Positions 2,506-30,392 of a stretch of 64,000 nucleotides of DNA are shown here, piece after piece. Each line of letters opens with the position of its first letter. The stretch's first letter is position 1. The notes below the pieces were generated by a model, which saw nothing but the letters and a program-made list of their open reading frames with translations, did not search any database and was not told the origin of the DNA. A program made the position numbers and the translations under genes. Source of the DNA: Akkermansiaceae bacterium (GTDB lineage: Bacteria; Verrucomicrobiota; Verrucomicrobiia; Verrucomicrobiales; Akkermansiaceae); contig JBPOGD010000006.1 of the NCBI GenBank assembly GCA_051252195.1, positions 144,551 to 208,550 on the forward strand, given 5' to 3'.

Positions 2506-5500
2506 CTAAGGTTCTAGTACCTCGACGCGAAGCCTCACAAATCGTCGAGTCTTCGCAGCATCTTGAATGAGCACCATCAGCATGCCATCAGCACTGTTTG
2601 GCAAAGTATCGACCTCAGAGTCATAGAGTGTTTCTGGCCAAATCACGAGATCATCAGAGGCTTCTACGATATACCTGATACTGGATAATGAAGAATTACG
2701 TGGGAATTCAAATTGAAGATTCTCTCCCTCCTTGTTGATGACAGGCTTAATTATTTCCGCGTCAACGGTGGTAGGGTCTCCTCCTAGCGCAAATTCAAGA
2801 AGCTCAGCGAGGCCGTCTCCATCAATATCAGAATTAGCATCAACCAGGTGGTCATCATGATAATCTTTTTTCCATGTTTGAAATTCTGTCAACAGGAGGC
2901 TCTCGTCAGAGCCCAAACCTGATGGCGAGGAGGAACTGGTTTGAATGAGGATTTTATCAATGATGCAGCCTGGCTCTCTCATCCACAAATAAAGGGTGTT
3001 CATTCCTTCGGCTAGATCGACGGTACTTCCAGATTGCTTCCATGTGTTTGCCGTAATATTGATTTGAGCTGCATTAGAGGCATCAGCTACGGTTCCTGCG
3101 AAAATGGAATCGCTGGAGCTATCAGAGCCGCTTCCTAATACGTAAACGTAGTAGCTGCCAGCTGTCGCGATATTGAGAGAATAGGTGACATAGGTTCCTG
3201 CCCCTGCTGTTGTAGAACTACCAGAGTTCGTAAGCGCTTGGATAGCATTGTCAGTGTTAGCCCCACTAGCACCTGATAACGTGACTATTTGCCAACTTTT
3301 ACCACCTACTTCCGTCATTGTTTGAAAGTTTTCTGCTTCTATGCTGACGTAGTTCGACTCTTGGTAAAATGACGTTCCCGTAATTGGTGACGCCACAGCT
3401 TCCTCGTCAATAACGAGGTCAAAGGTAGCGGAATCAGCCTGACTAAGTGAGTCAGATACAACGAGAGTAAAACTGAATGATCCTGCTGCTGTTGGGATGC
3501 CCTGCAGCACACCTTGAGAGGAGATCGTCAGCCCTGTTGGCAGGTTGCCACTTTCTAGTGACCATGAGTAGCTAGGCTCGCCTCCTGTCGCGGTAAAGGT
3601 GTGAGTCAAGGCTTGATTCACTGCTCCATTAGGAATGAGAGAGCCGGCGACGACCAGAGGTTCAGGTGGAGGCTCTTCACCTATGACGAGAGACAACAGC
3701 TGTAAATCGCTTTCCCCCGCACTATCTCTCACTTCAATAATGAAGGATGAATTTCCCAGAGCAGAAGGAGTTCCCGCTAAAGTGCCTTCGCTAGAAACCG
3801 TGATCCCTGCTGGCAGGTTGCCACTGTTGATCGTCCAAGTATAGGGAGCCACGCCACCTGCTGCCGTTAGTGACTCAAAATATGCGGTATTGATTATCCC
3901 TGGGGTAAGCGAAGTTGTGATGACGTTCAGCACACCTCCTTGTGTGGATGGTTCACCTACTACGCTTGTATGATAGAAGATACTATCACTTTGCCCTCCA
4001 GCAGAGGCGGTGATGGTGAATTGGTAAGTTCCTGCCGTCGTAGGTGAGCCCGCGAGCACGCCTCCTAAGCTGAGCGTCATTCCATCAGGAAGTATCCCAG
4101 ATGAGAGAACCCATGTTTTACTCCCAGTGCCTCCTGCCGCGACAAGAGTCTGCGAAAAACCTACCCCAATCTCAAAATCACGAAAATATCGTTGTTGTAT
4201 GACTAATGGAAAGGTGCTGCCACTGGGAGGAGTAAAGCTGCTCGCTGGCCCACCATAGAATGATGGGCCTACCTCATCCCGTTCAAGAGGCGCTGCGAAA
4301 CTAGTTGAGGTGCTATTTACCTCAGAACACCCTGCGTCATAAGGCGCTAAGCGCAGTCGACCACTGATATCTGAGCTGAGACGACTCTCTGCAATATCCA
4401 CATGGTCTACTGCAATACTGCTAGAACTTGGCAGATGAAAGCCCAATGACTCATCACTAGTAAGTTGGGGGTCGGTGCCATAAGTAACTCCAGCGAGACC
4501 ACTGTTACCGTAGCTACCAGCTGCGTGGTAAACGATGTTGTTCTTAAATTCTATTTCAGAGGTGCTGTACTGGATATCGAATATATTTCCGTCTCCAGAG
4601 GCGCTCTGCACGATGTTATTGGAAAACTCCACACCACTAGGTATGACCCCGTCCGACTTATTCTCACCGATGTTGATGGGCTGATGACAGTTGACAAAGG
4701 TATTGTTATAAATTGTTGCCCCATCAGCTGCCTCATAGCCGTTACTGATGTCATCGCTTGGCCAGTCATTATCGCCAGTCATCACAACCAATGCAGAGCG
4801 GAGGCCTGACCCGCCAATACTCTCGAAGTAGTTATTTTTAACCACATGATTTCTCCCGATAATGCGCACTCCTGACTCGCGCGACCCACCGGTTCCAAAG
4901 AAGAAGTTCCCATCGATGGTACAGTCATCACCATGACGCATCGTCATCTGACCATCGCAGTCGCGATAGGTGTTATTCCGATAAAGGTTTCCCCTAGATT
5001 TATTAGAAATCACCTCCATTTCAGAACCAGTATCAGATTTGATAGCTTGATAGAACAGGTTCGACTGCACGATGCATGACATGTTGTAATGCTGCTTCGT
5101 GCTATCCGCGACGCGGACGGACTCGTAACCATTCACACCTATTTCATCACGTGTACCGAAGTAGTTCTTCTCCATGAGGTGGTTCCGCGCAGTCTCTGGA
5201 TCGCCCTCAGAGCTTGGGTTTGGCTTGATAAAGACGGTGGCGTTATACGTCGATTTACCCTCGAAGCTATTATGATCAATTCGGTGGTTGTACCCTTCGA
5301 TAAACAGCCAGTTCGTATCGTCGATTCCTTCATTGAAATCTTTAAATTGACAGTTCGAAACACGGCAATACGTCGAATTCGCTTCAAGCCTAATAATCCC
5401 CTCCTTCTCTCCATTACCACCATTACCATCAAAGCTGAGTCCCGCGATCGTTATGTGACTTCCTTTGACATGAATGCGGGTAGCCCCCTCAAACTTCGCG

Positions 5501-5748
5501 CCTCCTAACTCAAGCGCATAAATATAGACAGGAGAGGTAGCCGTCCCAGCAACATCGATATCGACATCCACATCACTATACACGCCCGATGTAAGCTCAA
5601 CAATATCCCCAGCAGAGAGATCTCCTAGCACCGACTCTAACTCGGCAGTACTACTCACTTGATAGACATCCGCATGAGTATTTGACGGAATAAGGAAGCC
5701 AAGAAACCATGCTATCGAGAGACATGTGTGAAGGGTTATGAATTTCAT
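2506..5748 (-). CDS. secreted right-handed parallel beta-helix polysaccharide-lyase-like protein with tandem Ig-like (GxLPxGxxxxxxGxLxGTP) repeats, a carbohydrate-binding-like module and a C-terminal Ca-binding-type D-rich segment
   Basis: N-terminal signal peptide MKFITLHTCLSIAWFLGFLIPSNTHA. Beta-helix hallmarks (NNTYRDCDGQMTMRHGDDCTIDGNFFFG, repeated N/G-rich rungs). Three to four repeats of ...SGxLPxGMTLSxxGVLAGxPTTAGTY.... A module TGTSFYQESNYVSIEAENFQ.... DANSDIDGDGLAELLEFALGGDP near the C-terminus. Confidence 0.7.
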   Translation of the reverse strand: MKFITLHTCLSIAWFLGFLIPSNTHADVYQVSSTAELESVLGDLSAGDIVELTSGVYSDVDVDIDVAGTATSPVYIYALELGGAKFEGATRIHVKGSHITIAGLSFDGNGGNGEKEGIIRLEANSTYCRVSNCQFKDFNEGIDDTNWLFIEGYNHRIDHNSFEGKSTYNATVFIKPNPSSEGDPETARNHLMEKNYFGTRDEIGVNGYESVRVADSTKQHYNMSCIVQSNLFYQAIKSDTGSEMEVISNKSRGNLYRNNTYRDCDGQMTMRHGDDCTIDGNFFFGTGGSRESGVRIIGRNHVVKNNYFESIGGSGLRSALVVMTGDNDWPSDDISNGYEAADGATIYNNTFVNCHQPINIGENKSDGVIPSGVEFSNNIVQSASGDGNIFDIQYSTSEIEFKNNIVYHAAGSYGNSGLAGVTYGTDPQLTSDESLGFHLPSSSSIAVDHVDIAESRLSSDISGRLRLAPYDAGCSEVNSTSTSFAAPLERDEVGPSFYGGPASSFTPPSGSTFPLVIQQRYFRDFEIGVGFSQTLVAAGGTGSKTWVLSSGILPDGMTLSLGGVLAGSPTTAGTYQFTITASAGGQSDSIFYHTSVVGEPSTQGGVLNVITTSLTPGIINTAYFESLTAAGGVAPYTWTINSGNLPAGITVSSEGTLAGTPSALGNSSFIIEVRDSAGESDLQLLSLVIGEEPPPEPLVVAGSLIPNGAVNQALTHTFTATGGEPSYSWSLESGNLPTGLTISSQGVLQGIPTAAGSFSFTLVVSDSLSQADSATFDLVIDEEAVASPITGTSFYQESNYVSIEAENFQTMTEVGGKSWQIVTLSGASGANTDNAIQALTNSGSSTTAGAGTYVTYSLNIATAGSYYVYVLGSGSDSSSDSIFAGTVADASNAAQINITANTWKQSGSTVDLAEGMNTLYLWMREPGCIIDKILIQTSSSSPSGLGSDESLLLTEFQTWKKDYHDDHLVDANSDIDGDGLAELLEFALGGDPTTVDAEIIKPVINKEGENLQFEFPRNSSLSSIRYIVEASDDLVIWPETLYDSEVDTLPNSADGMLMVLIQDAAKTRRFVRLRVEVLEP

Positions 5749-5940
5749 GAGAGGGGGTTTGAAATACGGTTATCGAATGCGCGCTTATCATGTCTGAAAA
5801 CAGTCCGTTCGATATGGATTTCAATATACTATTTCTTCACTATTGCCTATCAGATTCTCTGAGATAAACCTCAACAGCCAAGGCTTATTCATGACCATAA
5901 AAACTACTCGCCAGTGATAAGAGAGAACAGGCTACTCCTC

Positions 5941-6100
5941 GTTCATTTTCAACCACGGATAGCACGGATTTTCACGAATCGTTGCTTGGCTATTGAGTTC
6001 GTTTTCAACCACGGAAATGACGGAAGGCGCGGAAAGTAGAGCTGAAAGAAATTCACTATTCTACATTCACCATTCTCAATTCCACCACCAGTCTGTGATT
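5941..6100 (+). repeat. Copy C of intergenic repeat family (about 125 bp near-identical to copy A), includes CACGGAT-N-CACGGAT-N-CACGAAT direct repeats
   Basis: 5954-6072 is nearly identical to 7601-7718 with 2-3 mismatches. It flanks the triple-RidA gene on the side opposite copy A. Confidence 0.7.
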
Positions 6101-6157
6101 GGTGCGCTTTGACGTTAGATTTGTAGAGGAATATATACCATGGAAATAAAATGCCAG

Positions 6158-7393
6158 TTATACATGTGGAGGAGTGCCTTCACAGTTAGACACCACGGCA
6201 TCAATTTGCACCAAAGCATTCATAGGGATCGCTGAAACGCCGACGGTTGTCATCGCAGGAAGATCGCTGTTGAAAAATGTCGTGTAAACTTCGTTCACTG
6301 CATCAATATCTGCGACGTTCTTAAGCTGGATATTTATCTTAACGACATCATCAATCACGTGGTCGACGCTTTCTACAATGGCCTTAATATTATTGAGGCA
6401 TTGCTCGGCCTGCTCTTTGACACCACCTGCTACCATTTCACTTGTTGTTGGGTCTAGAGGCAATTGACCTGAAATGTGATTGTAATGAGAAAAAGCAACC
6501 GTGTGTGAGTAGTCAGCCTTAGGAGCATTTTCCGTATTACTTGCCTCTATGACGAGTAAGCTGGTGTCTTCAGGAAGTTGTGGGGGGGTGCCATCTCCAT
6601 GCGACACAGCAGTATCTATTTGCACCAGAGCATCCATAGGTAGAGCTGAAGCGTTGACGATTGTCCGCGCAGGAACATAGCTTGGGAAAAATTCTGCACA
6701 GACTTCGTTGACCGCGTCGATATCTGAGATGTTTTTGAGGAATATCGTGGTTTTAACCACATCGTCCATCACGTGATCGATACTTTCTAGAATTGCCTTA
6801 ATGTTGCTTAAGCACTGTTCAGTTTGTTCTTTGACACCACCCGCTATCAACTCACCCGTTGTTGGATCGATAGGTAATTGAGCTGAAAGATTATTGTAGT
6901 GAGAAAAAGCGACGGTCTGTGAGTAGAGACCTTTGGGTGCCTTTTTCGTGTTTCTGGAAACCTTGATGAGATCGCAGGGATCTTGTGGAGCGGTGCCTTC
7001 ACCGTTTGAAATAAGCGCATCAATTTGCACCAAAGCATCATCTAAAGGTAAGGCCGCAACTGCGACGATCGTCCGTGTAGGAAGCTCGCCGTTGAAAAAT
7101 GCTGTATAAACGGCGTCTACCGCGTCGATATCAGAGATGTTCTTGAGGAAGATCGTGATTTTAACAACATCGTCCATCACATGGTCGATACTTTCTACAA
7201 CGGCTTTGATATTTGCTAAGCACTGTCCAGCCTGCTCTTTGATTCCACCAGCTACCATCTCACCCGTTTTGGGATCGATAGGTAATTGAGCGGAAAGATT
7301 ATTGTAGTGAGAAAAAGCGACCGTTTGTGATGATACAGAACTTACTGGTGCATTCGCCGTGTTTCTTGAGTTTTTGATAATGTTGTCGCTCAT
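6158..7393 (-). CDS. triple-domain RidA/YjgF/TdcF (reactive intermediate deaminase) fusion protein, three tandem RidA domains in one chain
   Basis: The 411-aa protein is three units of about 137 aa, each with the RidA pattern ...YSQTVAFSHYNNLSAQLPIDPTTGELIAGGVKEQTEQCLSNIKAILESIDHVMDDVVKTTIFLKNISDIDAVNEV...PARTIVNASALPMDALVQID.... The DNA shows the matching three-fold periodicity of about 411 bp. Confidence 0.85.
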   Translation of the reverse strand: MSDNIIKNSRNTANAPVSSVSSQTVAFSHYNNLSAQLPIDPKTGEMVAGGIKEQAGQCLANIKAVVESIDHVMDDVVKITIFLKNISDIDAVDAVYTAFFNGELPTRTIVAVAALPLDDALVQIDALISNGEGTAPQDPCDLIKVSRNTKKAPKGLYSQTVAFSHYNNLSAQLPIDPTTGELIAGGVKEQTEQCLSNIKAILESIDHVMDDVVKTTIFLKNISDIDAVNEVCAEFFPSYVPARTIVNASALPMDALVQIDTAVSHGDGTPPQLPEDTSLLVIEASNTENAPKADYSHTVAFSHYNHISGQLPLDPTTSEMVAGGVKEQAEQCLNNIKAIVESVDHVIDDVVKINIQLKNVADIDAVNEVYTTFFNSDLPAMTTVGVSAIPMNALVQIDAVVSNCEGTPPHV

Positions 7394-17124: not shown

Positions 17125-18885
17125 TTATAAGAGGTTGATTTCCAGTATTTCAGCGAGATTAGTTTTCAGCGTTTTACGCCGCTCACTCCAGAATGTCTCA
17201 AAGTCGCCAAACTCAAGGCTGGTATTCAAGCCGATATGATTTGCTGTTAAGTAAGCATCTTTAGTCTCTTGAGTGACATACTTATCAGCTACCCATTCAG
17301 TAAATTTCTTTCCGCTTTTAGATTGGTTCGCGCTTTTTTCAAGGAGCTGTAAATTGGGCAGTGTATCTCTCTTAGCTATCCACGTTTGTTGAGCGTCCCC
17401 ATCTAGCCCTAATGTGTTCAGATTAGATTTATAGAAGGCTTTTTTAGGATGTATGTGATCTTGATGAAAGTGCATTTGGCTGAATCTGCACCCAGAATAG
17501 AGAAGCGATAATACTAAGAACGTTCCCCCTCCTGAGGTCTCATGATCTAAGAAGTTATCTAGATCATCTTCATTAAGCGATATGGAACGACCACTCGGTA
17601 ATTTGCAGTGTTTTGCAAAGTCGGTCACTGTGAATTCATTTGATTCGGGAAGGCTCTTTTTCAAGTAAGACCGTATGTCAATGAGGGTTTGATCACTATG
17701 TGAGCCAAACAGCCCAGTCATAAGTGCTCTTATAAGATATAGTCTGAGACTTTCTTTAGAACGGTTTATATCGAAACCCAAGTGATGTGCGTATACGATA
17801 AGTATTACGGCATTTGCAGAAGTTAGTTTAGATGCGTCAAATCCCCAATCTACGAGTAGAACCACTGTGTCGGTTATGCTTTCTGTGATTTTTTGCCAAT
17901 TTGATTTGATTGTTTCAACATTAGCTGCGCCAAAGGCAGATACGTTCAGCTTACTGCCGAAATCACATAATATGAGGCAGCTCCTCATGATCCAGTCAGT
18001 CCCAAAGTTGAACCCATCTCCTAGAGAATTAATATCTGCTAGGAAGTTCTCGATTTTCTCTCTGCCATCATCCCAGTGGGCTACGATAGTAGAAAAAAGA
18101 AGGTCTGTTTTAGAGAGCACCTTACCGCCACTATTGACTCGCACAAAAATATCTAAAATCTCATCGAGACTTTGATTTTTAACGGGGAAGTAGTTGATGA
18201 GCTCTTCTGTGGTTAGACGATTATAGAGTCGGTTTAGTAATCGCTTAGCCTTTCTATTTTGATCATGTGTAATCTCGAAGTTTTGAGGGATGTTCTTCAG
18301 GAAGTTTTCCCATAGATCCTCTACATGATCTGATTCACCAGCTGTTAATACCTCTTTAACTGGAAACCAGCACTCAGGCTCGTTGAACCTCTGCGGGCTG
18401 ACGTCACCCTCTGTTTTAAAAGCGAACTGGTATTCTACCTGGTCATATTCTGCGGCTTCAAAAAAAACGTTCACGTAGAAGAGTCTCTTAGGATAGGATT
18501 CCCTGCGGTTCCTGCGCCTTCCTTTGGTGTGGTAGGCGTAAGACCCCTGAAGCGCTACATACATTGAGTTAAGTCTCTGCTGACCATCTAGCACTCCAGT
18601 AATGTTGCCTTCTAAAATTGGTTGAGGGGCAATTTCGTTTTTCCAGTTATCGTATCCGCTGAAGTTTTGTAAGAATTTATAGAAAACATAGTTGTTTTCT
18701 GTTCCGTCATCGACTTCCCAGAAGAGGAATGTCCCTATGGGGTAGCCTCTCATGATGGAGTCAAAAAGTTTTTCAATTTGGTCCGCATTCCAAACGAACT
18801 TACGCTGGAGGGCTGGCAGGAAAATTTTGTCCTGACCAATATTGATCATGACATCTTTGATAGTTTTAGCTGAATAAGCGGGCAT
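17125..18885 (-). CDS. GmrSD-family type IV (modification-dependent) restriction endonuclease, DUF262 + DUF1524
   Basis: N-terminal DUF262 with the DGQQR motif (VLDGQQRLNSMYVALQG). C-terminal His-Me finger of DUF1524 (MHFHQDHIHPKKAF). Confidence 0.85.
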   Translation of the reverse strand: MPAYSAKTIKDVMINIGQDKIFLPALQRKFVWNADQIEKLFDSIMRGYPIGTFLFWEVDDGTENNYVFYKFLQNFSGYDNWKNEIAPQPILEGNITGVLDGQQRLNSMYVALQGSYAYHTKGRRRNRRESYPKRLFYVNVFFEAAEYDQVEYQFAFKTEGDVSPQRFNEPECWFPVKEVLTAGESDHVEDLWENFLKNIPQNFEITHDQNRKAKRLLNRLYNRLTTEELINYFPVKNQSLDEILDIFVRVNSGGKVLSKTDLLFSTIVAHWDDGREKIENFLADINSLGDGFNFGTDWIMRSCLILCDFGSKLNVSAFGAANVETIKSNWQKITESITDTVVLLVDWGFDASKLTSANAVILIVYAHHLGFDINRSKESLRLYLIRALMTGLFGSHSDQTLIDIRSYLKKSLPESNEFTVTDFAKHCKLPSGRSISLNEDDLDNFLDHETSGGGTFLVLSLLYSGCRFSQMHFHQDHIHPKKAFYKSNLNTLGLDGDAQQTWIAKRDTLPNLQLLEKSANQSKSGKKFTEWVADKYVTQETKDAYLTANHIGLNTSLEFGDFETFWSERRKTLKTNLAEILEINLL

Positions 18886-19022: not shown

Positions 19023-19961
19023 CTAAATAGTTAAATCAACTCCTAATTTAGTATGAAGATGATTTTTTAATATCTTCATTGTCTTAGTCATTAAATTCGA
19101 TTCCTTTTTTAATGTATGACAAGCATAGGCCGATGGGGCAGTCGTTCTATTTCGTATATTTTTAATTTGAACAAGTTCAGTTTTGGAAGCTGAAAGAGAG
19201 GCCGTGATCATGGCCTTTTCAATTAGTCTAAGACGAAAATAGGAACCATCTGATTGCTTTGTTAATGAGTCGAAAGCCTCAGAGATAATAGCTGATCTAG
19301 AAGCTACATTAATTGAGCAGTTAATTGAAAAAGCCCTAGAAATACATTCGCTAACTTGACGTAACTCATCCAAACTTAGTGAAGGTTGTTTAGAACCTTT
19401 TCGATAAAGACTTTTTCCAACCCTGAGCTTAAATAGGTTTTGCTCATCATGCCCCTCAATTAATCCTCTGCGAACAAGCTCATCTATAATGTCTGTAAGA
19501 CTAAACTTGTACACGCCGAGATCAGCTAGAAAAGGGATTGCCATCGTTCTAAATGCGACAAATAGGGCGTCGTTAGCCCACCTGATACCTTCTGCGCAAT
19601 CTGGTGTTTTGTGGAGAAGTGTTGTTAGCCTATATCCGTCCCAAAATTCTTTCTGATAAGAATCCCGTATCTGAAAAGATTTATATAGTAATTGTAATTT
19701 ACCACTGGGATCTGAAAACACTACTGATTCTTCGATTAAATGTTTAATAAACAGAGAGCCAGTCTGCGTTAAATATTCGAGCTTCTTCCAAGTATATGTG
19801 GAACAAGAATAGCCCCTTCTTGTGAAGGTATATTCATTTTCTTGTAGCAAATCTACATCATCTGATACGATCAGAAGATCACGATCACTATGCACGTCAG
19901 TGTCTGTTCGGGCTAGGGACCCAAAAACCGCCATGGATAAGTCTGTATTGGCTCGTTTCAT
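19023..19961 (-). CDS. Pol-beta-superfamily nucleotidyltransferase-domain protein (312 aa)
   Basis: N-terminal NTase motif AVFGSLARTDTDVHSDRDLLIV (the GS...D.D catalytic signature), then a helical region of about 200 aa. It overlaps the upstream gene by 4 nt. Confidence 0.65.
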   Translation of the reverse strand: MKRANTDLSMAVFGSLARTDTDVHSDRDLLIVSDDVDLLQENEYTFTRRGYSCSTYTWKKLEYLTQTGSLFIKHLIEESVVFSDPSGKLQLLYKSFQIRDSYQKEFWDGYRLTTLLHKTPDCAEGIRWANDALFVAFRTMAIPFLADLGVYKFSLTDIIDELVRRGLIEGHDEQNLFKLRVGKSLYRKGSKQPSLSLDELRQVSECISRAFSINCSINVASRSAIISEAFDSLTKQSDGSYFRLRLIEKAMITASLSASKTELVQIKNIRNRTTAPSAYACHTLKKESNLMTKTMKILKNHLHTKLGVDLTI

Positions 19962-20893
19962 CGTTTTACAAGAAATCTAAAGAATATTGATGCTGCAACT
20001 GCAAAAAATAGAACCCCTATGATACTTTGCAAGCCCGCAGTGACTATTCCGAAATTCGAGGTAGCCCAAAAGTTGGAATGCCCCAGTGTAGTGATTAGCG
20101 AAGCTGTATAGTAAAAACTGGTATGAATTTCTCGGTTAACATCGAGCCCTGAAGATGAGTGCTTCATGCCGTAGTATAGCCAAAGTGAGTGGTTCAGAGC
20201 AAAGAGTAGCAAAAAACCAACACACAGACTTCCCGCAACTCGTAAAGGTCGCCAGCCAAATCCTGATGATAGTTGCAGGAAAAAAGCCCATGCATATTTA
20301 GCTAAAAACTTAAATGATCCGATTTTTCTAGTTTCACGGTCTCTGTATAGAGCCAGTCTTTTAAAATAGCTAAACATGAATTCAGCCTCAGCCCGAAATT
20401 CATGTTGATTCTCGCGAAGGCTATTCAAAGAAAGATTTTTGAACAGTCCAACACCTATGTTGGAATATGTTCGGCGATCCAAATTTAGAACCTTTGAAAA
20501 GGATCTAGGGTCAATATAACAAGCATCAAAAGCAGCTTTAAAAAAGTTACAGTTTTCAAAAACACAATGATGAAACTCGCAATTTCGAAACGTGGATCCA
20601 ATAAATAAACAATCAACGAATTTACAATCAGTGAAAGTGAACTGGCTAACCTCTGTCTTACTGAAGCTAACGTTTTTAAAGGTCTTATTCTCTATTTTTG
20701 AGAAGGATTTCGAAGATTTGAGCGTTTCAGGCATATATAGCCTATTTGTCATTTCACCTATTTTATCCATTTCCGATAACTCTTTCTGGAAGTCCTTCTG
20801 CTCGTCAAAATCAGCTACCTCGCCAAGAGTGCGGAAAAAATTCCGCACCTCTGAACCCTGCGTAAGTTTCAGTTCTTTATTTTGAGAAGGCAT
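19958..20893 (-). CDS. pentapeptide-repeat protein fused to a C-terminal two-TM ion-channel pore (Ion_trans_2-like) with non-canonical filter TTLGHSN
   Basis: Pentapeptide run NVSFSKTEVSQFTFTDCKFVDCLFIGSTFRNCEFHHCVFENCNFFKAAFDACYI. The C-terminus has TM1, a pore-helix-like SFYYTASLITTLGHSNF and TM2, collinear with KcsA ALWWSVETATTVGYGD. Confidence 0.65.
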   Translation of the reverse strand: MPSQNKELKLTQGSEVRNFFRTLGEVADFDEQKDFQKELSEMDKIGEMTNRLYMPETLKSSKSFSKIENKTFKNVSFSKTEVSQFTFTDCKFVDCLFIGSTFRNCEFHHCVFENCNFFKAAFDACYIDPRSFSKVLNLDRRTYSNIGVGLFKNLSLNSLRENQHEFRAEAEFMFSYFKRLALYRDRETRKIGSFKFLAKYAWAFFLQLSSGFGWRPLRVAGSLCVGFLLLFALNHSLWLYYGMKHSSSGLDVNREIHTSFYYTASLITTLGHSNFWATSNFGIVTAGLQSIIGVLFFAVAASIFFRFLVKR

Positions 20894-20960
20894 TGAGGTT
20901 TATATAAAACAATTTTATGAATTTTTCTATATTTTTTAAAAAACAAAAATGGAGGAAATA

Positions 20961-21062
20961 GGGTCAGGGAGATAAATGACTCATTAGCTTGGTTGCAGGT
21001 TTGATGTTTTTCTTGAGTGTTATTCGCTCCATCGCCAAGGCTCTGAAGTCGCACTCAGTCTA
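20961..21062 (+). repeat. 100-bp dispersed repeat, copy 2
   Basis: Matches 12921-13020. Confidence 0.7.
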
Positions 21063-21266
21063 GATACCTCGCCAGAAGTTTTCCGACTGACCGAAGAATA
21101 AAACGAAGCGGGTGGACATGATGGGTGTGATACGTTTCCCTAGGACGATTTTATTGATTGCACGGGGTGGGACGTCGATGGCTCGTGCCGTGGCATTTTG
21201 AGAAATACCCATGGGTTGAAGATATTCTTCGAGGAGGATTCCCCCTGCTGTGATTGGCTTTTTCAC
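21060..21266 (-). CDS. higA: HigA-family antitoxin-like HTH protein, C-terminally short and possibly degraded; no intact HigB partner
   Basis: [48 protein letters not shown] matches the HigA/XRE HTH consensus. GTG start. The upstream 190 bp has no intact toxin ORF. Confidence 0.6.
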
Positions 21267-21453: not shown

Positions 21454-22008
21454 TTAAGCTTGCTGGTTATTATTCGCTAGGGGGATTTTGTCGGTTGCTT
21501 CAACAAGACCCTTAAGGAAGCGAATGGCTTTTTCGAGTTCATCACGTTTCACTAGGTGGGGTGCACTCTTGGAGTCGTGATTTTTGTTGGCTTGATGCGC
21601 TGCATCACCCCTTTTTGAAATGATGCCGTCTAATACTCGTTTTGCTTGAGGTGTATCGTAGTTATCCCAAGCCCAGCTTTTCGTTATATCTATGTCAAAA
21701 TACTTTATGAAAAGCTGCTTAGCATTCGAGCTGTTGGGGCTATTGAAGCGACGTAAATCTTCTTTTAATTGGCGGAATGCAAAGTTTGCTATGGGGCTTC
21801 CTCGCATGGCGGATAGCCACATACTTATTTCTTCACGCATACGGTCTTTTAAGTATGTGTCCCATGCCGCTGCCGCTATTATATAGCCCGCGCGTTTGAG
21901 CACTTCGGCATTATGATCGGAAGGTGTGATTTTTTCTTCATCAAAGCGCTTGAGTAGTTCCTCGGCGCCTTTGATGGACTGTTGAAATGCGATTGCTGAT
22001 TCTGACAT
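21454..22008 (-). CDS. hypothetical protein with possible HEPN-like Rx4H motif (KRGDAAH)
   Basis: An alpha-helical 184-aa protein; the Rx4-6H motif lies near the C-terminal third. The assignment is weak. Confidence 0.4.
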   Translation of the reverse strand: MSESAIAFQQSIKGAEELLKRFDEEKITPSDHNAEVLKRAGYIIAAAAWDTYLKDRMREEISMWLSAMRGSPIANFAFRQLKEDLRRFNSPNSSNAKQLFIKYFDIDITKSWAWDNYDTPQAKRVLDGIISKRGDAAHQANKNHDSKSAPHLVKRDELEKAIRFLKGLVEATDKIPLANNNQQA

Positions 22009-22917: not shown

Positions 22918-25092
22918 TTATTTAGCAAATCTAAAGAATTTTTTGCCCGCACCTACTGGTATAGTGACGTTTGCTGAGCTTCCTGTAGGTGTCCAGTCAT
23001 CAGTTACTCCTAAGTCGGCACTTTCTTCTAGGCTAAACTCGATAGTTGCGTTGGTTTCGCTTTGGTCAATAGCGATTGTGATACTCCCAGGGCGTAGGTC
23101 GGTGATTTCAGTAAGATCGTATTTGCTTGCAACTTCTGTTTCTAAGTTATCAATGGCTGTATCCTTGTCAGACAACTGAGTCAGGAGGATATTAACGAGA
23201 GCGTTTTCACTGATAAGGCCAGTGAGAGTAGCACCATTGATATTAATTCCATCGAGGTTAGAAAAGCTTAGGTTGGCGTTCGTGAGGTTAGCACCAGATA
23301 GATCAGCATTGCTCAGATCACTATAGCTCAGGTCAGCACCTGTTAAGTTGGCTCCTGGTCCAATGAGGTATCCGTTAACAAGCTGCCACCCCGCAGGTAA
23401 ACTGTCAGGTATACCGTATTGAATACCTCCAGACTGGACACCAGTTAAATTAGCAGTTCCTAGGTTAGCATTCTCAATATAAATGCCGAATAAATTGGCA
23501 TTCGTGAGATCAGCATTGGTGAAATTATTTGATTCTATAAATGCGTTGGTCAGGTTAGCTCCGCTAAGGTTGGCGTTGGTCAGGTTAACATTATGCAGAT
23601 TTACACCGGTAAGGTTATTACCGCTAAGATTGGCCCCACTAAGGTTGGCTTCGTATAGGATGGTATCCGTAAGGTCATTCTGACTAAGGTTAGATCCACT
23701 GAGGTTGGCGTTATTTAGCATGGCACCTTGAAGGTTAGTTGCGCTAAGGTCAGTGTTGGATAAGTTTGCACCTGGCCCAATAAGGAAGCCGTTATCAAGA
23801 ACCCATTCAGGATCCAAGCTTGTTGGGACTCCTGTTATCCCACCAGATGTCACACCCGTCAGGTCTGATTGACTGAAAAAAGCTCCGCTCAAATTAGCAT
23901 TGACTAGGTTGACGTTCGTAAGTGTTGCATTGACTAATAAAGTATTAGTGAGATTTGCACTAGATAAATTACTGTTAGCGAGATTTGCCTGATCGAGGAA
24001 TGCTTCCGTCAGGTCGACTCCAGTTAAATTCAGGCCATCTAAGTCAGCATAAGCTAAATGGGCGCTTGGTCCGATGAGGTAGCCGTTTGTTAACACCCAG
24101 TTTGTCGGTAAATGGCTGGGGGTGCCTGTGATGCCACCAGAAGAAACACCTGTTAATACTGCACCGCTGAAGTTCGCTCCATTTATATTGGTATTCGTAA
24201 ATTGTGTGTATTCAAGATACGCATTGGTAAAGTTGACATCTGTTAAATTAAAACTTTGAAAATCTAGAAAGGTTAAATCGGCATTAGTAAAGTTGACGCT
24301 TATCAAATGAAAGCCTTGTAAATCAATTCCGCTTAAATCGGCATTAGATAAGTTTGCGCTAGGTCCTATAAGGTATCCGTAACTAAATGTCCAATTTGCA
24401 GGGAGACTAGCAGGAGGAGGGCTAAAGATATTGCCAGACTGTACACCGGAAAGGTCAGCACTTCCCATGATAGCCCCATCTATGAAGGCTCCATTGAGAT
24501 TTGCGTTAATGAGGTTAGCGTTAGATAGGTTCGCATAAGATAGGTCTGTATTAGTGAGCTGATTATTATATAGATTAGAACTGCTAAGGTTGGCTCCAAA
24601 TAAGGCAGAATTTGCCAAATTTGTGCCCGTTAAGTCAGTGTTTGATAAGTCAGCGCCTGGACCTAGGAGAAAGCCATTATCAATTTGCCACAAAGGGGGT
24701 AGGCTGAGAGGTGTTCCCACGATGTCGCCTGAACTAATGTTGATTAATGTAGCTCCGCTGAAATCCGTGTTTGTGAGGTCGGCTCCAGAAAAGCTAACCG
24801 TGTTGTGGATGCTGTTTAATAAATTAGCATTTGTTAAGTTCACATTATCGAATGAAACTTCTTCAAATGATGATCCCATAAGATCTGCATTTGCTAAATT
24901 AGCGTTTGTTAAATCAGCGTTATAGAGAGTGATAGAACTAGCTAGATTAGCTCCATTGTATGAATGGAGTACACTTGTATTAATATTGATAATATCTAAG
25001 ACCTGTCCAGATGTGTTGGTATAGGTGGCGGCTTGTGTTAAGGCTGCTAATTTAAGAAAGCACAGTGCTGCAACTTTGTTATAGTGGATCAT
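22918..25092 (-). CDS. large secreted pentapeptide-repeat protein with six periodic non-repeat insertions and a C-terminal beta-rich domain
   Basis: Long A(D/N)LxxAxL pentapeptide runs are interrupted about every 95 aa by GITGxPxxLPxxWxLxNGYLIGPxAxLSxADLSG. Signal-peptide-like VAALCFLKLAALTQAA after Met31, so the start is at 25092. Confidence 0.8.
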   Translation of the reverse strand: MIHYNKVAALCFLKLAALTQAATYTNTSGQVLDIININTSVLHSYNGANLASSITLYNADLTNANLANADLMGSSFEEVSFDNVNLTNANLLNSIHNTVSFSGADLTNTDFSGATLINISSGDIVGTPLSLPPLWQIDNGFLLGPGADLSNTDLTGTNLANSALFGANLSSSNLYNNQLTNTDLSYANLSNANLINANLNGAFIDGAIMGSADLSGVQSGNIFSPPPASLPANWTFSYGYLIGPSANLSNADLSGIDLQGFHLISVNFTNADLTFLDFQSFNLTDVNFTNAYLEYTQFTNTNINGANFSGAVLTGVSSGGITGTPSHLPTNWVLTNGYLIGPSAHLAYADLDGLNLTGVDLTEAFLDQANLANSNLSSANLTNTLLVNATLTNVNLVNANLSGAFFSQSDLTGVTSGGITGVPTSLDPEWVLDNGFLIGPGANLSNTDLSATNLQGAMLNNANLSGSNLSQNDLTDTILYEANLSGANLSGNNLTGVNLHNVNLTNANLSGANLTNAFIESNNFTNADLTNANLFGIYIENANLGTANLTGVQSGGIQYGIPDSLPAGWQLVNGYLIGPGANLTGADLSYSDLSNADLSGANLTNANLSFSNLDGININGATLTGLISENALVNILLTQLSDKDTAIDNLETEVASKYDLTEITDLRPGSITIAIDQSETNATIEFSLEESADLGVTDDWTPTGSSANVTIPVGAGKKFFRFAK

Positions 25093-25325
25093 TACGTGAG
25101 TTTTTATTGGTAGCATACTTGTTATTTTCCTAGTATGTGATGACGATAAATAATTAGTGATCTGATAGATTTTATATAACAAGCCCTAACCATATTAACT
25201 TCGAGCCAAGTATTATTTAAATAAACTTACGGCAGGCAGGGCTACCTCACTATAGGGGGCTAAAGAGTTGGGATTAGACATGTAAGCTACATGCAGTGCC
25301 CTAGCCTTTCTTGAGGCTTCTTGCC

Positions 25326-28300
25326 CTAATCTCCTTGTCTGACATCGGGCTTGATGGTGATGGGGGTTTTCTTCGCCGTTTTCTTCTTACTCGTCTTCTC
25401 CATGTTCTCTACGCCGCTTTGTTGGTCGGCGATGAGGTTGATATCGACTTCTACGGGGACGGCTCTTAGTGCTGAGATGATTTTCTCTAGCTGAGTGACG
25501 GTTTCGTTCGCTAGGCTCTGGGGCTGGGCGTAGCTGCTGCCTGCGGCGGCGATGCCGTCTTTGATGGAGTCGAGGCCGTCATTGAACTGGGTGAGCTGGG
25601 CGACGACGCGGCTGATGGGGTCGTTCTCACCAGCTCCGCCGAGGAGTTTGTTTTTATTGAAATCTTTTTTGATCGATTCCCAGCGTTGGGTGTCGGCCTC
25701 ACTGAGGATGCCTTCCATTTCCTTGAACTTGAGTAAATTTGCCTCGGCTCCGGTGGTGAGGGTCTGCGATTCATTTTCGTAGTGATCGATGATGATGGCG
25801 CGGACTTCATCGTGGGTCATCATGGGAAGAATTTTCTCCGCCATGCGGCTCATGTTTCGGTAAGAGCCTTGCAGTTTAAAGGCGGGTTCGGTGCGGTAGT
25901 TGTCCTCTTGGGCGGCGGATTGAATATACTGCAAGTTTACCTGCAGAATGGTATCGCGCACGGTGTAGAGGTGCTTGACGGTTTGGACAAAATCATCGAT
26001 CTCGGCAGGGGTGTAATTGCCTTCGAAATCGACTCCCTCTGGGCTGCCTGAGGTGGCGATTTGCATCACGGCGTAGACGTCTTTTTGAGAACGAGAAGCG
26101 AGTTTGGAAAGGACGCTATTGGAGGTGAGGCAGTTTTCGATGTACGAGGCTTTGAATGACTCCGCGTGGCCGCCGATGATGTCGCCGAGATTGTAGGTGT
26201 CTGCTCGGTTAGCTAACATGTCGGGGATCTGGAACTTGCCACCGCTCTCGGTATAAGGGTTTCCTGCCATGACGACCGAGACTTTTTTACCACGGAGATC
26301 GTAGGTGCGTGCTCTGCCCTGATAGACGCCTTCAATCTTACGCTGGGCATCACAGAGGGAAATGAACTTCTGGAGAAACTCGGGATGACAGTGCTGGATG
26401 TCATCGAGGTAAAGCATGACATTGTCACCCATTTCTAGAGCGAGGTTAAGCTTTTCAATTTCTTCACGCGCCGAGGCGTTAGGTGCCTCTGCGGGGTCGA
26501 GTGATTTGACGTCATGACCAATGGCGGGACCATTGATTTTCATGAAGGTGAGTCCGAGACGATCTGCCACGTATTCCATCAGCGTCGTTTTTCCGTATCC
26601 CGGAGGAGAAATGAGGAGCAGAAGGCCCATGCGATCGGTGCGGGTATCGACGCCGGCGGTGCCCATCTGTTTGGCGAGATTATCACCGATCATCGGGAGG
26701 TAGACGTCGTTGAGGAGTTTATTGCGCACGAAGGAGGACATGACGCGTGCCTGGAACTCATTGAGACGCATCTCTTGGCGCTTGGCCTCTGTGAGCTTGT
26801 GCTTGATGTTTTGGTAAGCGAGGTAAACGGGGACGATCTCTGTTTCGAAGTGATCCAGCTTGTCCATAAAATCGTTATAGTGCAGCTGGTAGTTAGGCTC
26901 GGTGCCGAGGAGTCCTGTGACGTCAGCGGTAACGACGACGTGGTGGACGTTGAGGGTGCTGTATGTGTCGGCTGCTAGATGGGCTGCGGCTTCAGATAAT
27001 AGTGCCTGATTGCTGAGTTCGCTCGTCGATCTCAGCCAATCGAGAATCGTTTGGTACTTCGCCTTACCTGTGAGGGTGGAAATAGAGTCTTCGTAGTTTT
27101 TCTGCGCGCGTTTGGCGGTGAGGGTTTGGTGGAATTTTTTGAGGATGCTGTCCGCCTCGGGCGAAATAACAAAGTCTGTTCCAGAGCTGAGTTGATCGTA
27201 GAGATAGGCTGCTGTGCTCGTGATCAGTGGGGTGTGACCAGTGCTCGGGGAGTGCTGGGTGAGAGCATTTTCGAGGATCGCAATATAGGGGTTTCCAGCC
27301 GTGTAGGAGGTCTGCTCGAAGCCGCTTTTCCTCATGAGAGCGTGGTTCTGTAGCTGCGTGGCGAGGGTGTTTTTTTCCTCAGACTCCCAGAGACTCCAGA
27401 AGAGGACAGCCATGGCACGCACCTCGGGACTGTACTTAAGTAGTCCGATATTTTGGTGAATGGGCATAATGGCTTGCAGAAAGAGGAAGGCGTCGTGGTC
27501 GTGGACGCCCTTGGTGTAGGACTCTGAGTAGCGTGAGGCGGCGAACTTCTGGATGGATTCTATCGATAGAGAATTTGGGTGTGCGGCTTCGCCATTTGTT
27601 TCATTCACGACCGGAACGGGCATGCTACGGAGGAACTGGTAAGCAAGGTACTCGCCGCGGTAGACGTCCTTGTTTTCAGAAATAAGCTCCTGATCCCAGA
27701 TTGGCTGGGTGGCGAGGAAATCGGGATCCGTGATCGGTTCAAAGAAGTCGGTTCCCGTGAGGTGAAAACACATCGCAGCATCGCGAGGCACGATGGAAAG
27801 CTCAAGCTTCTGGGTGTTAACGGCAAACTTGTGTTTACCTAACTTGATAATATTTGTGCCGTCGACGAAGAGTTCCTTACGGTCTTTGAGCTGTCGTACG
27901 GCATCTTCTTTGAGCGTTTTAAGCTGTGTCTGGATGTCGGCAGATTTAACCGAGTTTCCGAGGTCGTTGAGCTGCTCAATGATGTCGCGGACCTTGGAAA
28001 TCATCAGGTCACCAGCGAAGTAGCCGTTGATTTCGTTAAGTTCCTTAAAGGTAGCGACACGATTTTTAATGCCTGATAGAACGCGTTCGGCAGATTTAAC
28101 AAGGTTGGCTGCGCGTTTATTGCGTTTTTCTGTAAGAGCTGTTTTACGGGAGTCGAAGGCGCTGTAGACCTCCTCGCGCTTGGCTGCGAGATCTTCCGCG
28201 TACTCGTCAAACTCAGCAAATTTTCCTTCTAACTCCTCAATCTGCACCATGACCTTGGTGAGATACTCCTCACACTTTTCAGGGGCGTCACAGAGATCGA

Positions 28301-30392
28301 GAAAATTAACGATAGCTTGTCCTAGCAGCTTCATCTGCGCTCCGAACTGAGCGGAGCCCTCGGACTTCGCGAGTGCTTGGCGTTTGTTTTTAAGCTCAGC
28401 ACGAACAGCATTCAGCACCGAGTATATGTTAGAAATATTATCAATGATCGCCGTCGTCTGCGTGGCGTCTGCGATTTTTAAGTTACTAACTACATCGATA
28501 AGCATTTCTAACTCAGCAGCGCAGGTATCGAGAGCTTCTGATGTAGCATCGGCGTCAGTGACTTTAACAAGTTGTTCGATTTTTACTTTTTGCTCATCGA
28601 CACTACGGCGGTAAGAATCCAGAGCCTCGGGAGTCAGGAGGAAGCGAACTGTTTTCTCAGAAACTGCTTCGGTAGAGCTGACGACTTGCTGCTCGAGCTC
28701 GGTGATAAGATCTGCATCGACGTAACGCAGATCGCGGAGACCGATGATGTCGCCACGCAGCGTGCGGAGCTTCGAAAGCTGGTGAACGTAGCCCTGGATA
28801 TTCTCAGGTGGCGTGTGCTCGATTTCCCTGAGGAGTTTGTCGACAGCTTGCTGTGTTTGCTTGGTCTGCTGTGCAGTGGATTGACGGAGGCGAACGACCT
28901 TATCAAATTCATCGATCGCTGAGTTTGCCGCGGCATTGATTTCGCGGAGCGGTTGTGAAAGCTCAAAGGCTTCCTCGTTAGCTAACCAGAAATAGGTGTC
29001 GTTGATATCGCCTGTTTTTTTGACAAGGTCGAGATAGAGACCGGCGTAGGAATCTTCTTTCGATAGCAGGTTGAGTATTTCACGTGACTCTGCCATGCAG
29101 CGGACGATGTCTGCATTGCCTATTTTAAAGAGTAGTGAGCCATTCTCTGTGGCAGAGGCCGCACTGAAATCGGCGTCGAGATAGGGGGTTTGCCAAACCT
29201 GAATGACGTGGTGTTTCTGCGCCGCTTCATCCGAGCGGAAGTAGAGAAGTTTGCCATCGGGGAAAACGGAATAGCCGCTGCAAATAATCGGCGTGTCCAC
29301 GGCACGTTCGATGAGATTGTAGGAAAGCAGTACGTAGTCGCCGTTGCTGCGATTATAGAAAACAAAGAGCGTGTCCTCACCATTGGCGCTGACGATTCGT
29401 TTCTCAAAGCGCATGTCATCGAGACCGTGGTCGAAAATCTTGACCTCACCACTCAGCAGCAAATAGCCGTTGGCAAAGATCAGTCCTTGATCATCTGGTA
29501 GCAAAACGCATGAGTGCCCGATGGCATCGAGCCTGTGAACCTGCTGGGTTTTTTCATTATAAACGAGGTAACGGTAATCCTCCTCACGATAGGGGAGAAT
29601 CTTCAAAAGAACCAAGGGGCCTACGATGGCGTAGAGCACCTCTGCGTCATCAAGCGTCTGGTCTTTATCGGTGACGTCTTCTTGGTAAATACCTTTGCCT
29701 GAGCTGGTGTTATCCTCGATTTTGATGGTGAGATCACCGCCTACGGTTTCGACAAATATTTTATCCTCGATCGAAATATGAGGGTGCTCACCAGGCCGCT
29801 GCATGTCGCGATGGGCGCGCAGCCACTCGAACTCCTGCTGGGCGGGAAACTTGTACTCGTGATCAAAGCGATTACCGAGATACTCCATCGTACCGTCGCC
29901 ATTGAGTCGCCACTTAAAGGTTTTTAAATCATCGAGCCCTTTGCCAATGCGCACCGCCATGTGGAGGTGGGGGCCATTGAGCATGAATTTTACAAAAGTC
30001 GCCTGTTTGTAGTATTTATAAACGGAGTGGAAATCGTCGTGGAAATCACGGCCAAATATTTCTGAAGCATCAACCCGGGTGAGCGCGTGCGATTCGATAT
30101 CGTAATCGTAGATTGAAAACACATCGGCTGGCTCCATGGTTTGTTTGAGTCCAAACTGGATGTTGTAGCCAAAGAGGAAGCGACTTTTACCGATGGGCGT
30201 GATATCGCGCGCCACACAGTTATGCTCGGTGCTGATGCGCTCCGTGGCGATGAGTGCGGGGTCGATCGCACCAAAGATCTCTTTACGTGCGGTATTGAGT
30301 TGCTCAATACGCTCCCGCAAGACAGAGCCATGCTTCTCCATACGCCCGCGGATAACCTCATAGGAACCGCCTTCTAGTTGTTGATCTGACAT
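25326..30392 (-). CDS. giant (1688 aa) protein with a single MoxR/dynein-like (AAA_5-type) AAA+ module near the C-terminus, a long central coiled coil and a beta-rich N-terminal region
   Basis: Walker A ISPPGYGKTTLMEY. Walker B and the MoxR-like helix LYLDDIQHCHPEFLQKFISLCD. Sensor-1 VSVVMAGNP. A coiled-coil-rich region of about 400 aa. Confidence 0.8.
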   Translation of the reverse strand: MSDQQLEGGSYEVIRGRMEKHGSVLRERIEQLNTARKEIFGAIDPALIATERISTEHNCVARDITPIGKSRFLFGYNIQFGLKQTMEPADVFSIYDYDIESHALTRVDASEIFGRDFHDDFHSVYKYYKQATFVKFMLNGPHLHMAVRIGKGLDDLKTFKWRLNGDGTMEYLGNRFDHEYKFPAQQEFEWLRAHRDMQRPGEHPHISIEDKIFVETVGGDLTIKIEDNTSSGKGIYQEDVTDKDQTLDDAEVLYAIVGPLVLLKILPYREEDYRYLVYNEKTQQVHRLDAIGHSCVLLPDDQGLIFANGYLLLSGEVKIFDHGLDDMRFEKRIVSANGEDTLFVFYNRSNGDYVLLSYNLIERAVDTPIICSGYSVFPDGKLLYFRSDEAAQKHHVIQVWQTPYLDADFSAASATENGSLLFKIGNADIVRCMAESREILNLLSKEDSYAGLYLDLVKKTGDINDTYFWLANEEAFELSQPLREINAAANSAIDEFDKVVRLRQSTAQQTKQTQQAVDKLLREIEHTPPENIQGYVHQLSKLRTLRGDIIGLRDLRYVDADLITELEQQVVSSTEAVSEKTVRFLLTPEALDSYRRSVDEQKVKIEQLVKVTDADATSEALDTCAAELEMLIDVVSNLKIADATQTTAIIDNISNIYSVLNAVRAELKNKRQALAKSEGSAQFGAQMKLLGQAIVNFLDLCDAPEKCEEYLTKVMVQIEELEGKFAEFDEYAEDLAAKREEVYSAFDSRKTALTEKRNKRAANLVKSAERVLSGIKNRVATFKELNEINGYFAGDLMISKVRDIIEQLNDLGNSVKSADIQTQLKTLKEDAVRQLKDRKELFVDGTNIIKLGKHKFAVNTQKLELSIVPRDAAMCFHLTGTDFFEPITDPDFLATQPIWDQELISENKDVYRGEYLAYQFLRSMPVPVVNETNGEAAHPNSLSIESIQKFAASRYSESYTKGVHDHDAFLFLQAIMPIHQNIGLLKYSPEVRAMAVLFWSLWESEEKNTLATQLQNHALMRKSGFEQTSYTAGNPYIAILENALTQHSPSTGHTPLITSTAAYLYDQLSSGTDFVISPEADSILKKFHQTLTAKRAQKNYEDSISTLTGKAKYQTILDWLRSTSELSNQALLSEAAAHLAADTYSTLNVHHVVVTADVTGLLGTEPNYQLHYNDFMDKLDHFETEIVPVYLAYQNIKHKLTEAKRQEMRLNEFQARVMSSFVRNKLLNDVYLPMIGDNLAKQMGTAGVDTRTDRMGLLLLISPPGYGKTTLMEYVADRLGLTFMKINGPAIGHDVKSLDPAEAPNASAREEIEKLNLALEMGDNVMLYLDDIQHCHPEFLQKFISLCDAQRKIEGVYQGRARTYDLRGKKVSVVMAGNPYTESGGKFQIPDMLANRADTYNLGDIIGGHAESFKASYIENCLTSNSVLSKLASRSQKDVYAVMQIATSGSPEGVDFEGNYTPAEIDDFVQTVKHLYTVRDTILQVNLQYIQSAAQEDNYRTEPAFKLQGSYRNMSRMAEKILPMMTHDEVRAIIIDHYENESQTLTTGAEANLLKFKEMEGILSEADTQRWESIKKDFNKNKLLGGAGENDPISRVVAQLTQFNDGLDSIKDGIAAAGSSYAQPQSLANETVTQLEKIISALRAVPVEVDINLIADQQSGVENMEKTSKKKTAKKTPITIKPDVRQGD

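Follow-up and report, generated by a model that had tools for sequence, protein, structure and literature searches.

A probable Hailong-type abortive-infection module of a divergent clade in an Akkermansiaceae genome

The window analyzed here, a 64-kb stretch of chromosomal DNA from an Akkermansiaceae bacterium of the Verrucomicrobiota (contig JBPOGD010000006.1, positions 144,551 to 208,550), carries on its minus strand two overlapping genes, one encoding a channel protein (20893→19958) and the other encoding a nucleotidyltransferase (NTase; 19961→19023). By analogy with the published Hailong system, the two genes probably constitute a divergent Hailong-type abortive-infection module that acts by the same mechanism. 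The two proteins have the anatomy of the Hailong proteins HalA and HalB and are homologous to them, the catalytic motif of the NTase is intact, and the genes form an obligate pair. The architecture and logic of Hailong are already known and have been published with structures (Tan et al., Nature 2025; PDB 9nyi and 9dbh/9dbi/9dbj). Judged from sequence, the window adds a very divergent member from the Verrucomicrobiota, with identities to the solved Hailong proteins of 13% (channel) and 22% (NTase) and scores below the curated cut-offs. The two genes are as follows:

19958..20893, minus strand: halA-like gene, pentapeptide-repeat/K-channel-type pore effector (whole open reading frame including stop, 311 amino acids)
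19023..19961, minus strand: halB-like gene, 312-amino-acid nucleotidyltransferase (start overlaps the halA-like stop in the ATGA at 19958-19961)

The channel protein and its relation to HalA

The open reading frame (ORF) of the channel, with an ATG start and a product of 311 amino acids, was found exactly where the initial annotation had placed it. The identical protein is encoded on four independently assembled contigs, and thus the ORF is not an assembly artifact. The NCBI source is an Akkermansiaceae metagenome-assembled genome (MAG), and NCBI labels the channel "pentapeptide repeat-containing protein" and the NTase "hypothetical protein."

The channel had been described as unusual when taken alone; its architecture is instead that of HalA, which serves as effector in the published Hailong system. 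The best NCBIfam model for the channel was HalA (37.7 bits, residues 28 to 127), and HalA was also the top match for all five channel relatives tested. The AlphaFold2 model of the channel (pLDDT, 92.3) had as its top fold match, by both methods, HalA with oligodeoxyadenylate (9nyi_A; Foldseek E value of 1.2e-8, full length), and it has the whole-length HalA fold of crown, linker, and transmembrane (TM) pore. Forty-four channel relatives with 25 to 45% identity were combined with the window protein into a 45-sequence alignment and profile. In hhalign, this profile matched canonical HalA with a probability of 97.2% and an E value of 3.7e-11; the 252 aligned columns begin in the cap and reach the end of the inner TM helix, TM2. 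The canonical Hailong locus used for comparison (L013) was taken from IMG/VR; its proteins match the 9nyi and 9dbh chains exactly and score above the NCBIfam cut-offs (435 bits for HalA and 271.8 bits for HalB; NF051894/NF051895). Canonical HalA also contains pentapeptide repeats, and its filter position reads FLFGYTN. It differs from the window protein in its length (359 residues) and longer linker and in having no Pfam ion-channel match, whereas many members of the window clade do have one. The crown motifs differ as well, since the NVSFSKT of the window clade is absent from canonical HalA. A defense role for the channel had not been recognized in the initial annotation.

The channel consists of the following parts, listed from the N terminus:

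20699..20818, minus strand (residues 26 to 65): N-terminal cap, strand-helix-strand before the solenoid (DSSP and pLDDT of the model; the NCBIfam HalA model aligns with residues 28 to 127)
20495..20698, minus strand (residues 66 to 133): pentapeptide-repeat beta-helix, the presumed cytoplasmic "crown" or ligand receptor (NVSFSKT at residues 74 to 80 and CLFIG at residues 95 to 99 are family invariant)
20255..20464, minus strand (residues 144 to 213): helical linker (DSSP), ending with an amphipathic interfacial helix at residues 193 to 213 and a G211/G213 turn
20171..20248, minus strand (residues 216 to 241): outer transmembrane helix, TM1 (Kyte-Doolittle window above 1.4 for residues 215 to 241; model helix at residues 216 to 236)
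20057..20128, minus strand (residues 256 to 279): pore helix and filter loop (model helix at residues 256 to 269, then loop; Ion_trans_2 match at residues 255 to 309; pore-loop alignment to K2P, Kv, and KirBac at the family level)
20072..20092, minus strand (residues 268 to 274): degenerate selectivity-filter position TTLGHSN (read in the sequence)
19964..20056, minus strand (residues 280 to 310): inner transmembrane helix, TM2 (hydropathy at residues 279 to 311; model helix at residues 280 to 310; G293 at least 90% conserved)

The N-terminal region, previously read as about 90 residues of helix, is shorter (about 65 residues): residues 1 to 25 are of low confidence or disordered in the model and are followed by a 40-residue strand/helix cap. 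The Cys/Phe-rich pentapeptide repeats were confirmed. Their register comprises about 13 xFxxC units at residues 66 to 130, Pfam PF00805 scored 23.0 bits against a cut-off of 20.2 (residues 66 to 133), and Pentapeptide_4 matched with an E value of 1.8e-7. The repeats are tandem A(D/N)LXX-type units folded into a right-handed quadrilateral beta-helix, as in the pentapeptide family. Compared with MfpA, Qnr, AlbG, and the SV2 luminal domain, the domain has only about three coils, has Cys/Phe-rich repeats, and is fused to a pore. A gyrase-protecting role like that of Qnr or MfpA was considered and rejected: Qnr models scored 11 to 24 bits against cut-offs of 240 to 500, and the repeats are joined to a membrane pore. 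Nothing points to DNA mimicry by the domain either. Between solenoid and pore lies the 70-residue helical linker, on which the initial annotation was silent. Its terminal helix at residues 193 to 213 has a hydrophobic moment of 0.94 and a mean hydropathy of 0.67; in the family G213 is invariant and G211 nearly so.

The channel contains only two strongly hydrophobic segments (at about residues 215 to 241 and 279 to 311), which flank the amphipathic helix at residues 256 to 269 and TTLGHSN. The order TM1, pore helix, filter loop, TM2 is that of the K+ channel superfamily. The Pfam matches proposed earlier as a check were obtained in part: the pentapeptide model scored above its cut-off, while Ion_trans_2 fell short for the window channel itself (19.7 versus 22.5 bits; E value of 7.9e-4, residues 255 to 309) and was passed by its relatives P0020 (58.6 bits) and P0005 (49.8 bits). 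At the family level, the 45-sequence profile matched the pores of K2P, Kv4, and KirBac3.1 in the PDB with E values of 5e-11 to 1e-8 across TM1, the pore loop, and TM2. The proposal of a two-TM, K-channel-like pore with a degenerate TTLGHSN filter is therefore borne out by the family-profile matches and by a topology with a re-entrant pore helix; both a match to pore models and the topology expected of such a pore were found.

The selectivity filter was surveyed in 172 family sequences that cover the filter columns. The filter [TS]x[LVI]G[YF]GD is present in 80 of them and G[YFL]G without the Asp in 12; the remainder are degenerate (GFST, GASG, VDSQ, and others). TTLGHSN, which departs from the canonical T-x-G-[YF]-G-D signature, was confined in this survey to the window protein and the database entry identical to it (P0001), and the filters of the closest relatives are likewise degenerate (TTLGPGA and TTLGPMG). 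KcsA, MthK, and KirBac are K+ selective, and NaK (filter TVGDGN) and the cyclic nucleotide-gated (CNG) channels are nonselective. The window channel differs from all of these in its degenerate filter, in its N-terminal pentapeptide crown, the presumed gating domain, in place of RCK, CNBD, or Kir cytoplasmic domains, and in its NTase partner. From channel biophysics, a TTLGHSN channel should pass monovalent cations nonselectively, because only the T-x-G half of the filter is kept and the GYG sites are lost, as in NaK and the CNG channels. Nonselective conduction suits a depolarizing effector.

The nucleotidyltransferase and the conserved gene pair

The NTase is divided into a core shared with HalB and an extension:

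19362..19937, minus strand (residues 9 to 200): HalB-homologous core, a Pol-beta NTase fold followed by a HEPN-like helical domain (G14-S15, D26-x-D28, E78/D84, invariant R138, near-invariant R180)
19026..19361, minus strand (residues 201 to 312): C-terminal helical extension (near-invariant Y241/R245 and conserved PxxY at Y279), absent from the 227-residue canonical HalB

The NTase matched the NCBIfam HalB model with 87.4 bits (E value of 1e-24), and its fold match covers nearly all of HalB. It has the HalB fold with an intact Pol-beta active site (GS...DxD). Conservation was assessed across 27 aligned sequences, canonical HalB among them: nine residues (G14, S15, S25, D26, D28, L70, F71, H74, and R138) are invariant, and two (R180 and Y241) reach at least 90% conservation. 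D26 and D28 correspond to D21 and D23 of HalB, which are replaced in PDB 9dbi, and R180 corresponds to R164 of HalB, replaced in 9dbj; thus, all the residues mutated in the structural study are kept in the window NTase. At 312 residues, the enzyme is about 85 residues longer than canonical HalB and has an extra helical C-terminal region. Conserved tyrosines of the clade that are candidate priming residues are Y102 (Y92 of HalB), Y241, and Y279 in the PxxY motif (aligned with Y197 of HalB).

An active HEPN RNase in the helical domain was also considered and rejected, the Rx4-6H motif being absent from the window protein (R138 is followed by TMAIPF) and from most members. Three HalB-like proteins (L007, 3012-3884; L018, 4911-5774; L020, 4801-5652) have RNAC[IV][LF]H following the invariant Arg, which gives an Rx5H arrangement resembling that of HEPN nucleases, and may retain RNase activity; this His is absent from the window NTase, canonical HalB, and most members.

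The channel and NTase genes are co-oriented and share a 4-bp ATGA overlap (19958-19961), and the same 4-bp overlap occurs in the canonical locus (3989-3992). As in Hailong, the effector gene lies adjacent to and upstream of the NTase gene on the same strand, with translational coupling. The earlier suggestion that the channel is tied to the neighboring NTase is supported by the conservation of the pair: of 24 loci, drawn from at least eight phyla, 23 have the two genes side by side. These comprise the window itself, three loci fetched by protein identity (L005, L006, and L008), and all 19 loci of a genome-contig scan; in each, the NTase gene follows the channel gene immediately and has the same orientation. 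That scan used a 20-sequence subset and the FxNVSFSKT pattern as its sole search basis, and its 19 loci are therefore a biased sample. The taxa with the pair are Armatimonadota, Acidobacteriota, Latescibacterota, Desulfobacterota, Alphaproteobacteria, Bacteroidota, Verrucomicrobiota, and Chloroflexota. In the one exception (L007, 3012-9374), the HalB-like gene is 1.1 kb upstream and an opposite-strand GIY-YIG gene lies between the two. The HalA-like protein of this locus has the filter TTLGFGD, and the locus adjoins a CBASS operon (DncV-like NTase and patatin/DUF7002).

An exhaustive profile search among 1.8 billion representative proteins found about 207 clusters at 50% identity (E value below 1e-30). 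On the hidden Markov model of the clade, canonical HalA scored 22.9 bits and clade members scored above 250, marking the clade as a distinct sister group of canonical Hailong. That both window proteins score far below the NCBIfam HalA and HalB cut-offs likewise indicates a divergent sister clade.

Three loci of the clade are disrupted. In that of "Candidatus Electronema halotolerans" (L032, 3992-5886), the HalA-like gene is split by an insertion of about 1 kb with two IS630/Tc1-like transposase ORFs (4624-5061 and 5156-5626), and the HalB-like gene (5883-6719) is intact. The channel genes of L021 and L031 are frameshifted; the NTase gene of L021 is intact, and that of L031 is truncated solely because the contig ends within it. 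The broken gene is thus the channel gene in all three, a small number of loci from MAGs that may hold errors. Breakage of the channel gene alone is expected if the channel is the toxic partner.

A plasmid search with the canonical HalB sequence identified homologues with 33 to 42% identity in Rhizobium, Agrobacterium, Klebsiella, and Yersinia (L009, 2038-3669; L010, 2035-3669; L011, 1312-3654; L012, 1307-3654). This search found no adjacent HalA; a WYL-domain or DUF1883 gene lies beside the homologues, an arrangement suggesting that NTases of the HalB type work with other partners, whether effectors or regulators. No match to canonical Hailong was obtained in a phage GenBank collection, no member of the window clade was found in a scan of viral contigs, and matches to PHROG were weak only.

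Proposed mechanism and alternative explanations

In the published system, as recounted in PMC13434031 and PMC13276650, HalB makes tyrosine-primed, template-independent poly-dA or oligodeoxyadenylate (Tan et al. 2025). Stretches of five deoxyadenylate nucleotides are reported to bind each subunit interface of the tetrameric cytoplasmic crown of HalA and close the channel (PMC13434031); in the account of PMC13275509, the crown ligand consists of poly-dA adducts of HalB. Once a phage 5'-3' exonuclease has removed this DNA, the HalA channel opens and depolarizes the cell (Tan et al. 2025, as related in PMC13434031, PMC13276650, and PMC13275509).

By extension, the window NTase would constitutively make tyrosine-primed, template-independent oligodeoxyadenylate, and short stretches of this DNA would bind between the crown subunits of a tetrameric channel and lock the pore shut. 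Destruction of the DNA by a phage DNA exonuclease would release the lock and open the channel; the membrane would depolarize, and the infected cell would stop growing before phage release. The initial annotation had suggested that the pentapeptide solenoid is either a gate or a docking surface for the NTase. By analogy with Hailong (PMC13434031), the gate is close to the truth, and in place of docking the solenoid is better regarded as a probable receptor for the DNA product of the NTase.

Several known systems are comparable. The Hailong described on P4 satellites in a study of P2/P4 hotspots (PMC13586616; Nucleic Acids Research 2026) has, by its description alone, the same domain composition as the window pair; it resides on an enterobacterial satellite, whereas the window pair is chromosomal in a Verrucomicrobiota MAG. 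According to the same account, DefenseFinder and PADLOC miss the P4-satellite Hailong. Panoptes/MISS (2'3'-c-di-AMP) and Clover (p3diT) are described as systems in which a constitutive nucleotide signal holds an effector off and its removal by phage triggers immunity (PMC12265719). This logic is common to the Hailong-type pair, but the enzymes, signals, and effectors differ and the proteins are not homologous.

Several observations weigh against assignment of the pair to Hailong. The channel scored 37.7 bits against an NCBIfam HalA equivalog cut-off of 250 and the NTase 87.4 bits against a HalB cut-off of 190, and identities to the solved proteins are as low as noted above. The family crown motif NVSFSKT aligns with an unrelated QDCDFQGT in canonical HalA, and an oligo-dA site in the crown of the window channel is therefore putative at most. 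The window NTase does not end in Tyr, as canonical HalB (Y227) and two plasmid homologues do, and it carries a C-terminal helical extension of about 110 residues that HalB lacks. The defense-island argument (see below) rests on two flanking genes only. Finally, PADLOC (2023) had no model matching the channel and gave only weak PDC-M05A/PDC-S09 matches for the NTase; this is uninformative because the library predates Hailong.

The strongest alternative retains the architecture and changes the signal or trigger: the clade would be a separate type of Hailong-like system whose NTase, with its additional C-terminal domain, makes another oligonucleotide or stays tethered to the channel, and the release cue would then be something other than a phage 5'-3' exonuclease. 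In favor of such a variant, NVSFSKT and the invariant residues K79, C95, C110, and N145 are clade specific and not common to canonical HalA, HalB has no counterpart of the NTase extension with its Y241/R245 and PxxY, the scores of both proteins are far short of the equivalog thresholds, and the pairing of HalB homologues elsewhere with WYL or DUF1883 proteins points to a versatile NTase module. The catalytic core and R180 (R164 of HalB) are nevertheless kept, the fold match extends over nearly all of HalB, and nothing positive points to another product. We regard this alternative as improbable.

Less probable still is a toxin-antitoxin pair in the style of type VII (MntA/HepT), in which the NTase would neutralize the channel by direct nucleotidylylation of the channel protein. 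Weak MntA matches and the HEPN-like fold fit such a pair, but HalB is a far better match in both sequence and fold. Moreover, the HEPN-like domain of HalB is part of the enzyme and not a separate toxin, the window NTase lacks Rx4-6H, and the published Hailong, in the account of PMC13434031, acts via a DNA ligand. The least credible alternative, a housekeeping ligand-regulated cation or K+ channel beside an unrelated nucleotidyltransferase, draws on the canonical K+ filter of about half the family, the Ion_trans_2 score of P0020, and the location of L005, L006, and L008 among ordinary metabolic or repair genes instead of obvious defense islands, and it is opposed by the adjacency of the pair across phyla with overlapping start and stop codons, the patchy distribution (about 207 clusters), the Hailong proteins as best structural matches of both proteins, and the low GC content and flanking defense genes of the window locus.

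With the Hailong-type module thus preferred, a further proposal concerns the clade as a whole. About half of its members keep the TxG[YF]GD filter, which would place the clade inside the K+ channel family. The clade may, as an unlikely but conceivable extension, be a distinct Hailong type within that family, perhaps with a different nucleic acid ligand, a tethered enzyme-channel complex, or another phage trigger, and with a transition from K+-selective to nonselective conduction. If this is true, the recurrent filter losses (TTLGHSN here and GFST, GASG, or VDSQ elsewhere) would record a switch from K+-selective channels to nonselective killing channels.

Genomic context and implications

At the 5' end of the channel gene, the position of the start codon was reconsidered. 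The first 15 codons (20846-20893, minus strand) have no counterpart in the homologues, which begin at an aligned MLxDFFKL corresponding to V16, and the GTG at 20848-20846 (V16) has an AGGG 8 nucleotides upstream. Because the homologues start at this position, the annotated ATG may be 15 codons too early and the GTG at 20848 may be the real start. The promoter-like site listed below is weak, since a promoter and terminator scan of the region found such sites to be no commoner than expected from shuffled sequence. The remaining features near the pair are as follows:

20912..20940, minus strand: promoter-like site TTTAAA-17-TAAAAT, 19 nucleotides upstream of the ATG (consensus match only)
17125-18885, minus strand: GmrSD-type nuclease (PADLOC HEC-05, 593 bits)
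21060-21266, minus strand: 68-residue HTH_3 protein resembling a short HigA-type antitoxin
21454-22008, minus strand: RiboL-PSP HEPN protein (73.6 bits)
22918-25182, minus strand: 754-residue protein composed of little besides pentapeptide repeats (288 bits for PF00805, in 11 stretches)
25326-30392, minus strand: 1688-residue protein combining DUF3686 (597 bits; "ATPase involved in DNA repair"), DUF7902, and, at the C terminus, an AAA domain

The pair lies in a low-GC stretch (0.40 to 0.42 at 16 to 22 kb, versus 0.45 to 0.53), with the GmrSD nuclease gene on one side and the HTH and RiboL-PSP HEPN genes on the other. Together, the Hailong-like pair and its flanking genes look like a small defense island. 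Farther out are an amine-oxidase gene and the genes for the 754-residue and 1688-residue proteins, the latter of which may represent a further system for conflict or repair next to the island. The 754-residue protein, encoded 2 kb from the channel gene, is unrelated to the channel despite its pentapeptide repeats and contains a recurring GGITG.P..LP..W.L.NGYLIGP.ANL spacer. No tRNAs were found in the window.

For the window, two previously unannotated genes and a small defense island can now be annotated functionally with confidence. More broadly, Hailong defense by a DNA-gated channel would be extended to the Verrucomicrobiota and no fewer than seven further phyla, by way of a clade overlooked in current annotation. 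Alongside the fold match, the clade provides sequence-level evidence for grouping HalA-type effectors with the tetrameric K+ channels. Its members with canonical filters and those that have lost the filter would form a natural series in which ion selectivity can be related to abortive-infection killing.

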